A DNA stretch of 64,000 nt, from NCBI RefSeq assembly GCF_988242995.1, contig NZ_OZ547043.1, one strand, 5' to 3'. Position numbers and translations under genes: made by a program. Shown piece by piece: positions 8,026 to 44,853 of this stretch. The notes under the pieces are model-generated. The model searched no databases, was not told the origin of the DNA, and was given only the letters and a program-made list of their open reading frames with translations. Each line of letters opens with the position of its first letter. Within the stretch, counting starts at the first letter, position 1.

Positions 8026-8310
8026 ACAAATTCCTTACTGAATATACTGCGCTGCACTATACGGGGTTAATAAAATAAAGCCAGCGATATTTAAGACCGC
8101 CGGACGGCTAAAATAAAATTTGCTTAATCTCAATTATCATGCGTTAATAGCTGCGTCGGTTTGAAAGACAGACAGCATACAAAGTAGTTTACTAAAGCAG
8201 TTCTCATTATCAGGCATTATCCCCTTCTTTTGAGTCTCTCTCCTGAACACTAAGTAGTTTCTGTATTAAAGCCCTGTTTGCCGAAAGGCCCAAAATGAAG
8301 GAAGTAAAAT

Positions 8311-8523
8311 ATGTCTAATAAAATGACTGGTTTAGTAAAATGGTTTAACGCAGATAAAGGTTTTGGCTTTATCACTCCTGATGATGGCAGCAAAGACGTT
8401 TTCGTCCATTTCACCGCCATCCAGAGCAATGAATTCCGCACGCTGAACGAAAATCAGAAAGTTGAATTTTCTATTGAGCAGGGGCAGCGTGGCCCTGCGG
8501 CAGCGAACGTTGTTACGCTCTAA
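8311..8523 (+). CDS. cspG: cold shock protein CspG
   Basis: 70 aa CspA-family ORF ([21 protein letters not shown]), divergent from cspH. Confidence 0.92.
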
Positions 8524-8533
8524 GGTTGCCGTT

Positions 8534-8722
8534 ATTACTCAACATCTCCATTTCCGCTGTCCATGTTGTCATGGTTCACAGTACCGCACATCGGCATTCG
8601 ATGTGACGGAGCGAAACCCTTTGGGCGCTAAGTGTATTTTTTGTAAATCGACGATGATCACCTTTGATAACGTCGCGCTGCAAATACGCACTGACCATGC
8701 GCCGCTGGATTTCACAAAATAA
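8534..8722 (+). CDS. possible small zinc-ribbon protein (ymcF-like); start codon uncertain
   Basis: Open frame encoding CPCCHGSQYRT...CIFCKS (two CxxC pairs) between cspG and ymcE; no canonical start downstream of cspG stop. Confidence 0.3.
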   Translation: MTQHLHFRCPCCHGSQYRTSAFDVTERNPLGAKCIFCKSTMITFDNVALQIRTDHAPLDFTK

Positions 8723-41275: not shown

Positions 41276-42340
41276 ATGGTAACGTCCTGTACTGGACATG
41301 TTTTAGATAATCAGCGCGCCACCACTCGCGGAGATTTCTCCTCCGGTAGCAACTTCGTCACTTTGTATTTTCAACCTCATCCTTTCTTTTCATGTGTTAC
41401 CGACGCCGTAAACGGTGCGCGTAGCCGTTTTTCGGCATTTTATCCAAAAGCAAACTATGGCTTACAAGGAAGCCAACCCTCTGATGTTCGTGCGCATAAT
41501 CGCGCTGCCAACGGCGCGTGTGATGAATACAAACAACTCAAGGTGCTCTCCATGGGAAGACAAAAAGCAGTGATCAAAGCTCGTCGCGAGGCAAAACGTG
41601 TGCTGAGACGGGATTCGCGCAGCCATAAGCAGCGTGAAGAAGAATCGGTCACCTCGCTTGTGCAGATGAGCGGCGTAGAAGCCATTGGTATGGCCCGCGA
41701 CAGTCGCGATACCTCGCCCATCCTCGCGCGAAATGAAGCGCAATTGCACTATCTGAAGGCTATTGAGAGTAAGCAGCTGATATTCGCCACGGGCGAAGCC
41801 GGGTGCGGAAAAACCTGGATCAGCGCAGCAAAAGCGGCAGAGGCCCTGATACATAAGGATGTCGACAGGATTATCGTCACCCGTCCAGTTCTGCAAGCCG
41901 ATGAAGATCTTGGCTTCTTACCTGGAGATATCGCAGAAAAGTTTGCTCCCTATTTTCGTCCGGTCTACGACGTGCTGGTCCGGCGCTTAGGGGCTTCCTT
42001 TATGCAGTACTGCCTGCGACCGGAAATAGGGAAGGTGGAAATTGCGCCGTTCGCCTATATGCGTGGACGTACCTTTGAAAATGCAGTCGTCATTCTTGAC
42101 GAGGCGCAGAATGTGACTGCCGCGCAAATGAAAATGTTTTTAACCCGCCTCGGGGAGAACGTGACGGTTATCGTCAACGGTGATATCACGCAATGCGATT
42201 TGCCTCGCGGCGTGCGCTCCGGATTAAGTGACGCGCTGGAACGTTTCGAAGAAGATGAAATGGTCGGGATCGTCCGATTCGGTAAAGAGGATTGCGTACG
42301 TTCGGCACTTTGCCAACGTACGCTACATGCATACAGTTAA
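41276..42340 (+). CDS. phoH: phosphate-starvation-inducible ATPase PhoH
   Basis: 354 aa, Walker A GEAGCGKT; translation may start at a downstream Met. Confidence 0.9.
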   Translation: MVTSCTGHVLDNQRATTRGDFSSGSNFVTLYFQPHPFFSCVTDAVNGARSRFSAFYPKANYGLQGSQPSDVRAHNRAANGACDEYKQLKVLSMGRQKAVIKARREAKRVLRRDSRSHKQREEESVTSLVQMSGVEAIGMARDSRDTSPILARNEAQLHYLKAIESKQLIFATGEAGCGKTWISAAKAAEALIHKDVDRIIVTRPVLQADEDLGFLPGDIAEKFAPYFRPVYDVLVRRLGASFMQYCLRPEIGKVEIAPFAYMRGRTFENAVVILDEAQNVTAAQMKMFLTRLGENVTVIVNGDITQCDLPRGVRSGLSDALERFEEDEMVGIVRFGKEDCVRSALCQRTLHAYS

Positions 42341-42357
42341 GTGTATTATCGGTACAG

Positions 42358-42388
42358 AGCCCGGGCGAACCGGGCTTTGTTTTATTTC
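42358..42388 (+). terminator. rho-independent terminator after phoH
   Basis: agcccgggcgaaccgggct stem followed by T-rich run. Confidence 0.7.
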
Positions 42389-42902
42389 ATTAACAGCAAA
42401 GACTTTCACTTCAGGTTAACGTTCAGGGGGGCGACTTTGAGCGTGTTGATAAGCTGAAATGAATTCTGGTTTAGATACTCTTACCAGGCATTTTTCGTCA
42501 TAGCACCCGACCAGTGTAATGCCGCCAGCGCGGAGAGTTTTTTGCCTATCTTTTTCCAGCCATTCAACCTGTACAGGAGGTCTGGTGCCAATTTTGCGTA
42601 TGAGGTTTAATCAGCAATGGGCCATAATTTGACTGACTGATTAACACCGAATATATTCTCCTGATTTTATTTTTTAGGGATAATATTAAAAATATAAGGT
42701 TAATCTTAATTAATTCTTCAGCTAATATTGTGTGTTGTTATTTTTTGTGGACGGCAAGCCGCAATGGCAAAATAGGTATGGTTGTAATAATCAAAACATG
42801 ATACTAACTATATATAGATCGTTGAATTGTTGGCATGTAACTCGCTACAGCGAGTAGCGTTAGTAATGAAATATAATCAACATGGATAGGTGAAGATTAA
42901 TT

Positions 42903-43589
42903 ATGAGCTTTATGGTTTTTGTAACTTGTTTGACAATTGCATTTGTCGCCGGTTTTGCTGTTGCCAGAAAATTGACACTCCGAAAAGTTGCCTCATCGGT
43001 AATCATCACTAGATCGCAACCAGTCCCTTCCTCTGCAACTTCCCCTGCGGCTAAGGCGTCGACAAGGAGCTATACACCGCAGAAAACCTATCGTGACTCT
43101 CGTTGGCAAGAACGAGATGAGTTGTTCCAGGGAATGGTTGCCGAAGGTATTTTATTGGAAGGAAAAGAGTGGTTAATTACGCGTTGTGAAAAAATTTATT
43201 TTGATAATCTGGAGAAATGGTTTGGACATTATTGTCATATCCATTGCCAGGTCTCTCTGGGGCGCTTGATCAACTTTCCAGAACAACCCGAGTTTAGCGA
43301 AGAAGAAAGAAAGCGTTTCTTTGCAATTTATAATGGAATGGCAATGGATTATGTTCTGGTTTCAAAGAAGAACAATAAAATAGTCTGTGTTATTGAGCTG
43401 GATGATCCGAGTCATGAAAGGGCAGATCGCATTATTCGTGACCGTTGGTTGAATACGATTATGACTATTGCACGGGTGCCTTTTGTACGAGCTTCTGTCA
43501 CTAAATTGGATGAAATCCCTCCGGTCTGGGATACCCGTGACAAAATTCGCCCATTAGCCGCGGCGACAAAGGGTGAACCGTTGCATTAA
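42903..43589 (+). CDS. membrane-anchored protein with DUF2726 / restriction-endonuclease-like C-terminal domain (accessory)
   Basis: 228 aa; N-terminal hydrophobic helix (FMVFVTCLTIAFVAGFAV); C-terminal DYVLVSKKNNKIVCVIELDDPSH resembles DUF2726; AT-rich 5' region. Confidence 0.7.
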   Translation: MSFMVFVTCLTIAFVAGFAVARKLTLRKVASSVIITRSQPVPSSATSPAAKASTRSYTPQKTYRDSRWQERDELFQGMVAEGILLEGKEWLITRCEKIYFDNLEKWFGHYCHIHCQVSLGRLINFPEQPEFSEEERKRFFAIYNGMAMDYVLVSKKNNKIVCVIELDDPSHERADRIIRDRWLNTIMTIARVPFVRASVTKLDEIPPVWDTRDKIRPLAAATKGEPLH

Positions 43590-43595
43590 CTAAGT

Positions 43596-43674
43596 ACCCC
43601 GGTCGGGGCTCCTCATCCCCCCGGTGTGTGCAATATACGAAAAAAAAGCCCGTACTTTCGTACGAGCTCTTCTT
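43596..43674. repeat. left copy of serX 3'-flank repeat (part A), interrupted by IS200
   Basis: 79 bp nearly identical to 44488-44565. Confidence 0.8.
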
Positions 43675-44385
43675 GTGCACAGAAAACCCCCAGCTAGGCT
43701 GGGGGTTCCGGAAAGCTTTCAGCTTTGAGCCAGTTATTAAAACCCCTTTTGATTTGTTAAAACACCTTGCGGTCTGGCAACTGCAAGTGTCAAACAAGAA
43801 ATCAAAAGGGGGTCCCAATGGGGGACGAAAAGAGCTTAGCGCACACCCGCTGGAACTGTAAATATCACATAGTTTTTGCGCCGAAATACCGAAGACTGGC
43901 GTTTTACGGAGAGAAGCGTAGGGCGATAGGCAGTATTTTGAGAAAGCTGTGTGAGTGGAAAAGCGTACGGATTCTGGAAGCAGAGTGCTGCGCAGATCAT
44001 ATCCATATGCTTGTGGAAATCCCACCCAAAATGAGCGTATCCGGCTTTATGGGATATCTGAAAGGGAAAAGCAGTCTGATGCTTTACGAGCAGTTTGGGG
44101 ATTTGAAATTCAAATACAGAAACAGGGAGTTCTGGTGCCGAGGGTACTATGTCGATACGGTGGGTAAGAACACGGCGAAGATACAGGACTACATAAAGCA
44201 CCAGCTTGAAGAGGATAAAATGGGAGAGCAGTTATCGATTCCCTATCCGGGCAGCCCGTTTACGGGCCGTAAGTAACGAAGTTGGATGCAAATGTCAGAT
44301 CGTGTGCGCCTGTTAGGGCGCGGCTGGTAACAGAGCCTTACAGGCGCATTTGAAAAACCTCCGGCTATGCCGGAGGATATTTATT
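43675..44385 (+). mobile_element. IS200-family insertion sequence (~711 bp, approximate ends)
   Basis: Left hairpin cccccagctaggctggggg, RBS-sequestering stem ccccttttgattt/aaatcaaaaggggg, tnpA, right hairpin cctccggctatgccggagg. Confidence 0.85.
43818..44276 (+). CDS. tnpA: IS200 transposase TnpA (HUH Y1 transposase)
   Basis: 152 aa from ATG 43818 (MGDEKSLAHTRWNCKYHIVFAPKYRR); HiH motif in ADHIHMLV, catalytic Tyr region GYYVDTVG. Confidence 0.9.
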   Translation: MGDEKSLAHTRWNCKYHIVFAPKYRRLAFYGEKRRAIGSILRKLCEWKSVRILEAECCADHIHMLVEIPPKMSVSGFMGYLKGKSSLMLYEQFGDLKFKYRNREFWCRGYYVDTVGKNTAKIQDYIKHQLEEDKMGEQLSIPYPGSPFTGRK

Positions 44386-44410
44386 TAAATATGGCGGTGA
44401 GGGGGGGATT
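44386..44410. repeat. left copy of serX 3' end repeat (part B): duplicate of last 19 nt of serX plus junction
   Basis: tttaaatatggcggtgagggggggatt vs tttaaagatggcggtgagggggggatt at 44564-44590. Confidence 0.8.
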
Positions 44411-44487
44411 GACTCGCTTCGCTCGCCCTGCGGGCAGCCCGCTCACTGCGTTCACGGTCTGTCCAACTGGCTGTCGCCAGTTGTCGA

Positions 44488-44590
44488 ACCCCGGTCGGGG
44501 CTTCTCATCCCCCGGTGTGTGCAATATACGAAAAAAAAGCCCGTACCTTCGTACGAGCTCTTCTTTAAAGATGGCGGTGAGGGGGGGATT
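44488..44590. repeat. right copy of ~104 bp direct repeat (serX 3' flank plus tRNA 3' end)
   Basis: Direct repeat of 43596-43674 + 44386-44410 with ~5 mismatches. Confidence 0.8.
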
Positions 44591-44659
44591 CGAACCCCCG
44601 ATACGTTGCCGTATACACACTTTCCAGGCGTGCTCCTTCAGCCACTCGGACACCTCACC
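44572..44659 (-). tRNA. serX: tRNA-Ser (anticodon GGA)
   Basis: 88 nt; minus strand reads GGTGAGGTGTCCGAGTGGCTGAAGGAGCACGCCTGGAAAGTGTG...GGGGGTTCGAATCCCCCCCTCACCGCCA with 7-bp acceptor stem, long variable arm, CCA encoded. Confidence 0.9.
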
Positions 44660-44853
44660 AAATTGTTGTTCCTGTCTTGCTGGAACGGGCGCTAATTTAG
44701 GGAAATCATGACCTGAGGTCAACAAACTTTTTTAAAAAATCGCGTGTTTATTCAAACTTCAATCAATATGCAGTTTTAATAAGCGAAATCTGCTTTTTTT
44801 GCCACCGACCACGGATTTGTTATGCTGGTGGCTTTTGTAGATCATAACGATAA

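Follow-up and report, generated by a model that had tools for sequence, protein, structure and literature searches.

The direct repeat at the 3' end of serX is a known array of tRNA-linked repeats with an IS200 inside

[quoted passage not shown] They were first seen in tyrT by Egan and Landy (1978) and catalogued by Rudd (1999), and Escherichia coli K-12 possesses 22 copies at ten loci, with one to five copies per locus (PMC8144298). Some TLRs lie between the tRNA genes of an operon, and others follow 5S rRNA genes (PMC8144298). In the supplement of the same work, the copies associated with serX carry the EcoGene names rsX1-4, which denote the K-12 serX deletion interval, and a K-12 strain was made from which all 22 TLRs were deleted (PMC8144298). 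In the literature, TLR RNA that is co-transcribed with a tRNA or rRNA and processed has been demonstrated only for the RtT of tyrT and for rrB (for rrB, PMC8144298). For the 5S-linked RrB, it has been shown or proposed that RNase E acts at the repeated 3' end and that the RNA is expressed when transcription reads through a terminator (PMC8144298).

The stretch of DNA analyzed here (the window) is 64,000 nucleotides long and belongs to contig NZ_OZ547043.1 of assembly GCF_988242995.1. It contains serX, the gene for tRNA-Ser(GGA), at 44572-44659 on the minus strand, which was called by ARAGORN, scored 53.8 bits against the Rfam tRNA model and is identical to serX of K-12. The original prediction, made from the letters alone, described a direct repeat of about 104 bp with about five mismatches that takes in the last 19 nt of serX, with the left copy split by an IS200 between ttctt and taaa. 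Pairwise alignment bore out this description. The left copy (43596-43674 plus 44386-44410, 104 nt with the IS removed) and the right copy (44488-44590, 103 nt) differed in a global alignment by 3 mismatches and one 1-nt indel, which is about 96% identity and slightly better than predicted, and the inserted element was located at 43675-44385. The homology between the two copies ends sharply at either side, and a 104-nt repeat at 96% identity far exceeds what chance would give. The tRNA part of the right copy is the last 19 nt of serX (44572-44590, minus strand; AATCCCCCCCTCACCGCCA). The same 19 nt recur with 19/19 identity at 44392-44410 in the left copy. The 77-bp segment between the copies (44411-44487) and its inverted repeat, which lies at 44464-44483, were likewise as described.

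The spacing of these elements reveals a tandem organization. On the minus strand, the CCA of serX is at 44572 and the next CCA is at 44392, which gives a period of 180, with the same 19 nt before each CCA and the same flank after it. Together, the two repeat copies and the 77 bp that had been regarded as unique make up 1.57 copies of a head-to-tail tandem unit of about 180 bp. The one complete unit, which is of the rsX type, is 180 nt long (44392-44571, minus strand); it starts with the base that follows the CCA of serX and runs as far as the next CCA. Along it lie a terminator (T1), a structured core and a copy of the last 19 nt of the tRNA. In order, the parts of such a TLR unit are an AU-rich spacer with a strong bidirectional terminator; a structured core, which is closed by the pairing of a G-run on the 5' side with the tRNA-derived 3' strand; and the 19 nt that repeat the tRNA 3' end. 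T1 follows directly after serX (44531-44566, minus strand) and is a 16-bp A-tract/U-tract hairpin, AAAGAAGAGCUCGUACGAAGGUACGGGCUUUUUUUU, that is bidirectional in form; it was found in the RNA fold of 44392-44571 on the minus strand, and its plus-strand version was found by a scan. In the same fold, the closing helix (P1) has GGGGGAU (44507-44513, minus strand) as its 5' strand and, as the partner of this strand, AUCCCCC (44403-44409), which lies within the tRNA-derived 3' end. The 19-nt copy at 44392-44410 (minus strand) closes the unit and is the hallmark of the TLR family.

The second unit is partial. Its first 6 nt (UAUUUA; 44386-44391, minus strand) were identified by the alignment of the copies and are cut off from the rest by IS200, while the unit is uninterrupted in strain elppa4. 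The remaining 79 nt (43596-43674, minus strand) comprise the terminator copy T2 (43640-43674, minus strand) and the 5' part of a core, and end with ...CCGACCGGGGU at a distance of 6 nt from a stop codon, the same end point as in elppa4. Because the window holds one unit in full and 85 nt of a second, truncated one, the locus presents itself as a 104-nt repeat, consisting of the 19 nt, the terminator and the start of the core, around 77 seemingly unique bp that are the rest of the core. The stop codon belongs to a gene on the plus strand (42903-43589), which borders the array at its truncated end and lies in a low-GC segment (GC 31-44% across 42450-43350). It is named a DUF2726-domain gene from the PGAP annotation of the identical arrangement in elppa4; an NCBIfam search of its protein returned no family match, so that the name rests on PGAP in related strains. 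In the lineage of the window, this gene stands in for the pgaABCD-dgcT-ycdU block of K-12.

The closest relatives of this array are rsX1-4 of K-12. The locus, orientation, unit, 19-nt tRNA-Ser 3' end, terminator and core are the same in both, and an alignment of the window unit with a K-12 unit over 181 columns showed 2 mismatches and 1 indel. Different from the window with its one full unit, 85-nt partial unit and IS200 in the second unit, however, K-12 MG1655 has three full units and a 60-nt partial unit between serX and ycdU. The distal truncation points also differ, as the neighboring gene is ycdU in K-12 and the DUF2726 gene in the window. Strain NCTC9064 has two units, and elppa4 has one unit plus a partial one, which is the arrangement of the window without the IS200. 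The same layout of about 1.5 copies, i.e., tRNA, terminator, TLR, 19 nt, terminator copy and truncated next unit, was also found at proK and lysQ.

Similar to the serX array, the RtT repeats of tyrT-tyrV (rttR; RF00391) are tandem units of about 180 bp that end in the last 19 nt of their upstream tRNA. Egan and Landy reportedly described, in 1978, a 178-bp unit repeated 3.14 times in the tyrT-tyrV operon. The two types of unit share a homologous core, GGAUGAGAA..GGUUCGA..CCCGNAGGGCGAG..GAGU, and the same closing helix, and Rfam aligns the serX unit over the whole RtT model. The match of the window unit to RF00391 (44392-44529, minus strand; model positions 1-130) covers the 77 bp together with parts of both repeat copies and scored 41.1 bits (E = 7e-6), which is 4 bits under the gathering score of 45. 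The orthologous units of K-12 and NCTC9064 scored 46.3 bits and one K-12 unit scored 36.1 bits; thus, the scores of the serX locus (36.1-46.3 bits) fall on either side of the gathering score, and PGAP annotates the serX-linked units of related strains as "RtT sRNA". The tyrT units themselves scored 133-137 bits, compared with 41-46 bits for the serX units. Moreover, the tRNA-matching segments of the serX unit are those of tRNA-Ser, whereas those of the tyrT unit are of tRNA-Tyr, and the serX unit opens with a strong terminator, has an extra 8-bp hairpin and lacks a tpr-like ORF.

The core itself was compared among the TLR loci of K-12. Reading of the tyrT, lysT, argV-Q and proK loci revealed a common core, ..AACGTTGC..GCAACGGCCCGAAGGGCGAGCGAAGCGAGT followed by ATCC, and a core with ..CCCGNAGGGCGAG..GAGT followed by ATCC is common to all K-12 TLR loci. 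In the serX unit, CCCGCAGGGCGAGCGAAGCGAGTCA is followed by ATCC, as in the lys, arg, pro and tyr TLRs. The unit is thus a member of the TLR family, and the repeat is already known as the long-known RtT-type TLR array after serX in E. coli and its relatives, present here in about 1.6 copies with an IS200 inside. We consider it highly probable that the feature as a whole is the TLR array of the serX operon, orthologous to rsX1-4 of K-12 and a member of the family that includes the 178-bp RtT repeats of tyrT, with a dual-terminator and read-through mechanism.

The serX array is polymorphic in copy number and deeply conserved at its locus. At least one complete unit, as judged by a 123-nt core, was found in 3365 of the 5426 complete E. 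coli genomes, at 1 to 11 places per genome (median 2). The other 2061 genomes are without a complete serX unit, and CFT073 has a partial unit only; the number of units in E. coli hence ranges from 0 to about 11. A scan across genera with one genome per species found 79 loci at which a TLR joins tRNA-Ser; they are spread over more than 20 genera of the Enterobacterales, including Escherichia, Salmonella, Citrobacter, Klebsiella, Enterobacter, Kosakonia, Phytobacter and Atlantibacter, as well as Mixta, Pantoea and Erwinia of the Erwiniaceae. These loci each contain 1 to 4 tandem copies spaced 174-186 nt apart. At nearly all of them, the array directly follows an intact tRNA-Ser 3' end, similar to the window, where no base separates the unit from the serX CCA and both have the same orientation. 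The flank past the last TLR is a duplicate of the flank past the tRNA, and its terminator stems vary among genera and match inside one genome. This pattern indicates concerted evolution of the duplicated flank.

This distribution bears directly on the proposal that the repeat is the scar of an integrase-mediated insertion or a miniature integrative element, according to which a tyrosine integrase that targets tRNA genes duplicated its att site at serX and left the 77 bp as a remnant or as a tiny mobilisable element. The same arrangement is found without any enclosed island in K-12, which has three full units; a complete unit is present in the 3365 E. coli genomes, and the unit follows tRNA-Ser directly in more than 20 genera. 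By the terms that the original prediction had set for itself, the proposal was not upheld. The idea of a discrete miniature element holds loosely, and the unit belongs to the known TLR family. The DNA between the repeats is not foreign; more than 20 genera have conserved it at this locus, and its structure is under constraint. The unit neither contains nor adjoins a recombinase gene, the 77 bp hold no ORF, and the sole transposase gene nearby is tnpA of the IS200 that arrived later. In addition, copy number changes by whole units, as predicted by unequal recombination, and TLRs also occur between tRNA genes in operons and behind 5S rRNA.

Several features nevertheless speak for an integrase. 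The 19-nt identity starts inside the T-loop, between TTCGA and AT, which is the classic position of crossover, and the core is flanked by the 5' half (CCGGGGTTCGA) and the 3' half of a T-arm. Homologous cores lie beside five types of tRNA with ends that are specific for each tRNA; therefore, the element must somehow have been re-templated or moved in the past. Furthermore, serX is a real integration hotspot, where CFT073 carries an island of about 113 kb with an integrase. Similar to the serX TLR, this island, PAI-CFT073-serX, has a direct repeat that takes in the 3' end of serX at the same hotspot. The island starts immediately past the CCA of the intact tRNA, and its far end, beside the tyrosine integrase, carries only CCCCCTCACCGCCA, after which comes the native TLR-type flank. 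Its att repeat is therefore 14 nt long, whereas the TLR repeats 19 nt plus 85 nt of flank; the island has an integrase and a cargo of about 113 kb, whereas the TLR has no recombinase and encloses 77 bp of conserved structured sequence. Neither a recombinase gene, nor a repeat equal to the att core of known serX elements, nor foreign or variable enclosed DNA was found at the serX TLR.

Proviruses of about 45 kb are also found at tRNA-Ser genes that bear TLR arrays. A scan of viral contigs with a generic pattern of the TLR core returned 26 loci. Those inspected were provirus calls, mostly of about 45 kb, that included the host flank of attR at tRNA-Ser: a tyrosine recombinase gene lies about 90 nt from a 3' fragment of tRNA-Ser, and 1 to 4 TLRs then follow at 0.1-1.2 kb from the contig end. 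Carriage of TLRs by phages was considered for these matches and rejected, as the TLRs are on the host side of attR, and the array is on the host side of attR in the island of CFT073, too. BLAST searches of 50,697 phage records with the units of serX and proK found no genuine phage copy; the serX unit had no match, and the matches of the proK unit were Salmonella chromosomal contigs and a 7-kb unannotated record only. The sequence comparisons thus place serX among the integration hotspots, yet indicate that its TLR is not a product of integrase events, and we regard an origin of the repeat as an integrase scar or miniature integrative element as very unlikely.

The terminal unit is truncated at three points in three lineages, next to ycdU in K-12, next to dgcT in CFT073 and next to the low-GC DUF2726 gene in the window. 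A secondary crossover by an integrase, which would end the terminal partial units at a pseudo-T-loop (GGTTCGA), was considered for these truncations. The end points of the window (..GGGGT) and of a provirus locus (L096; ..GGGGTTCG) fit this idea, whereas those of K-12 (..CACCGGG), CFT073 (..GCGACAG) and proK (..TTCGACTCGA) do not, and neither do the end points across genera, which scatter broadly. The idea was dropped, as there is no consistent end point.

The complete unit (44392-44571, minus strand) is predicted to fold with -76.8 kcal/mol (z = -4.3 relative to shuffled controls) into a structure with the 16-bp terminator hairpin, the closing helix and internal hairpins. When the TLRs of the ser, tyr, lys, arg and pro loci are compared, P1 has a 5' strand that varies by locus and stays complementary to the 3' strand of each tRNA. 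Across these TLRs, 86% of the cells of P1 were paired, versus at most 59% with slid partners; none of 500 shuffles reached the observed value, and 4 pairs had double changes. For 76 distinct serX-type units from more than 20 genera, 95.4% of the cells were paired in the RNAalifold consensus, versus at most 48% when slid, with compensatory double changes at 15 pairs; these covariation counts derive from related sequences in a MAFFT alignment on which the structure was also predicted, which inflates the agreement somewhat. The inverted repeat of the original prediction is an 8-bp hairpin, CAACUGGC GACA GCCAGUUG (44464-44483, minus strand), of which 7 of the 8 pairs had compensatory double changes among the 76 units. 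As in RF00391, both the closing helix and the internal helices are kept by compensatory change. The 77 bp are thus a conserved, covarying and structured core and not cargo.

Such covariation is difficult to reconcile with a neutral local tandem duplication, in which the 3' end of serX and its flank were copied once without any RNA function, kept by chance and homogenized by gene conversion. A one-off duplication does not explain why helices were preserved by so many compensatory changes of base pairs, why the unit was kept at one and the same place in both Enterobacteriaceae and Erwiniaceae, or why a homologous core is found at ten K-12 loci and beside five types of tRNA. On the other hand, the range of copy numbers in E. 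coli is without obvious consequence, the copies within a genome evolve in concert, and all 22 TLRs of K-12 can be deleted (PMC8144298). Given that this deletion strain was made and that 2061 of the 5426 E. coli genomes lack a complete serX unit, any TLR function is dispensable, and the extra copies may be neutral. As an account of the repeat as a whole, neutral duplication is nevertheless highly improbable.

The resemblance of parts of the unit to a tRNA raises the question of a degenerate tRNA pseudogene, that is, a duplicated tRNA-Ser that lost its 5' two-thirds and received an insertion in the T-loop. The unit contains a hairpin similar to a T-arm (GGGGGG-AUGAGAAG-CCCC) and, farther on, a second 5' half of a T-stem with TTCGA, then AAT, the 3' half of the T-stem, the 3' strand of the acceptor stem and CCA, and all of these segments agree with the cognate tRNA in the units of ser, tyr, pro and lysQ. 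The unit has no trace of a D-arm, an anticodon arm or a variable arm, however, and ARAGORN called neither a tRNA nor a pseudo-tRNA at the unit. Moreover, the core is common to units that are linked to different tRNAs and therefore was not derived from each tRNA separately. A pseudogene is extremely unlikely as the explanation of the unit; it would account for the origin alone and is compatible with the TLR assignment.

Three separate segments of the unit change with the tRNA to which it is linked at the ser, tyr, pro, lys and arg loci: the 19-nt end, the 5' half of the T-stem with UUCGA about 77 nt upstream, and the G-run that is complementary to the 3' strand of the T-stem and acceptor. The core is placed exactly at the position of the T-loop. 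It is conceivable, though rather unlikely, that the serX unit and the other long-form TLRs are selected RNAs that mimic the 3' half of their own tRNA. If so, the RNA could be a tRNA-specific decoy or sensor, e.g., for a factor that processes 3' ends or binds T-arms, and a role at the DNA level could be that of a pseudo-att landing pad beside the integration hotspot.

As members of the TLR family, the serX units may be expressed in a manner similar to that of rrA, rrB and rrF, which are found after the 5S rRNA genes of rrnA, rrnB and rrnD, respectively (PMC8144298). In those loci the TLR lies between T1 and T2, as it does at serX, and their 18-nt copy of the 3' end of the upstream RNA was proposed to be a signal for processing by RNase E (PMC8144298). 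Different from the serX units, however, rrA, rrB and rrF are linked to 5S rRNA and bind Hfq and CsrA via GGA motifs, and they scored unlike the tRNA-linked members in a prediction of CsrA binding (PMC8144298). The order of tRNA, T1, TLR and T2 at serX would correspond to a dual-terminator design. Transcription presumably starts at a predicted promoter-like site upstream of serX (TTGACC-17-TAAATT; 44694-44722, minus strand), which was found by a consensus scan. By analogy with RrB, read-through of T1 would yield an RtT-like RNA of about 140-170 nt, the end of which would be set by the tRNA 3'-processing machinery, as its 3' end is identical to that of the tRNA and is followed by the same AU-rich spacer. 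RNase E would cut just past the CCA, and exonucleolytic trimming would follow. By the same analogy, the serX unit would be co-transcribed with its tRNA and processed to a discrete RNA. T1 looks strong in the predicted fold, and read-through may be slight. The number of units probably shifts by unequal homologous recombination or by slippage between units; unequal recombination does not account for the origin of the first unit.

The element that splits the second unit is an IS200C-type IS200 of 711 bp (43675-44385, plus strand), the ends of which are ambiguous by 2 nt (TT). It was recognized with the Rfam STnc490 model and from the PGAP annotation of matching strains, in which it is named "IS200/IS605-like element IS200C family transposase". 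Elements of the IS200 type are about 0.7 kb long and have a single 152-aa tnpA and a structured 5' leader, with neither terminal inverted repeats nor target duplication. The element in the window likewise has a single tnpA (152 aa; 43818-44276, plus strand), a structured 5' leader RNA (43685-43808, plus strand; Rfam STnc490, 146 bits) and a junction with only the 2-nt ambiguity, which places it in the IS200/IS605 family. A scan also found a hairpin at its right end (44358-44376) that is terminator-like on both strands.

The IS200 lies 6-8 nt past the CCA of the TLR, and its left end adjoins the T-run of the T2 terminator. The IS200-TLR junction of the window was found in 7 genomes only, and 4 further genomes carry an IS200 at this offset right behind serX itself. 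In NCTC9064, an IS200 occupies the same position within the unit as in the window. A preference of IS200 for TLRs was considered, as another strain has an IS200 just after a lysV-linked TLR, and was rejected; both left ends adjoin the T-run of a bidirectional terminator, and the terminator is more likely the target of IS200 than the TLR. The IS200 would thus have arrived later than the array, beside the bidirectional T2, and the hairpin at its right end may now serve as a substitute terminator for read-through transcripts.

A repeat across the 3' end of a tRNA gene is usually read as an att site, which at serX would falsely flag the scar of a mobile element. The TLR/RtT arrays that follow serX, serW, tyrT, proK and lysV and those of the lys and arg operons should therefore be recognized before island boundaries are called. 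The copy in the window makes the function of TLRs no more testable than the K-12 copies already do. However, the covariation across genera and the concerted evolution of the dual terminators within genomes argue that the structure of TLRs is under selection.

The interval between phoH (window 41276-42340) and the serX array of tRNA-linked repeats (TLRs) consisted in the window lineage only of a low-GC segment of 1.25 kb (window 42340-43595, GC content 31-44%), in which a DUF2726 gene lies (window 42903-43589). In contrast, the interval of K-12 and CFT073 contains pgaABCD-dgcT(-ycdU) in place of this low-GC segment. The low-GC segment directly adjoins the TLR array, at a point 6 nt past the DUF2726 stop codon. 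Moreover, the terminal, partial TLR unit was cut at three different points in three lineages.

IS200 was located 6-8 nt past the TLR CCA at two unrelated loci, which were serX (window 43675 and 44385) and lysV of strain FDAARGOS_1371 (L089 830-1540). Because a bidirectional terminator hairpin lies with its T-run directly against the left end of IS200 at both loci, the results suggest that IS200 targets the 3' side of bidirectional terminators rather than TLRs as such. In addition, the right-end hairpin of IS200, CCTCCGGCATAGCCGGAGG (window 44358-44376), had a terminator-like score on both strands and would probably halt transcripts that run into the IS from the serX/TLR side.

Other Rfam matches in the window were Ysr251, a Yersinia antisense sRNA (42142-42335, minus strand, 192.8 bits), which lies antisense to the 3' portion of phoH, as well as the cspA thermoregulator (8155-8577, plus strand, 156 bits), ES056 sRNA (50260-50351, minus strand, 119.7 bits) and ES036/CssrF (60445-60487, minus strand, 40.9 bits), the last three of which exceeded their gathering scores.

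Comparison of the T-arm-like segments of the K-12 TLR loci L004, L007 and L009 with window 44484-44513 showed two tRNA-like elements in the long-form TLRs of ser, tyr, pro and lysQ, each of which matches the cognate tRNA. The first is a hairpin resembling a T-arm (T5'-AUGAGAAG-T3'), and after it comes another T-stem 5' half with UUCGA. The common core occupies the place where the remainder of the T-loop would be.

TLR arrays were also found at the ends of ~45-kb IMG/VR proviruses (L096 12938-13720; also L093-L103 and L107), in the terminal order tyrosine recombinase, tRNA-Ser 3' fragment and 1-4 TLR units. In L096, one terminator variant was present in the first and last flanks and another in the internal units. 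Its terminal partial unit ends exactly within the pseudo-T-loop (..GGGGTTCG|) and adjoins an HTH gene. Finally, a more divergent TLR-like array with units of ~180 nt was identified after a different tRNA-Ser 3' fragment (..GAGGGTTCGAATCCCTCCCTCTCCGCCA) at L091 9960-10800. The core of this array showed only loose similarity; therefore, the TLR family may reach beyond Enterobacterales-type units.
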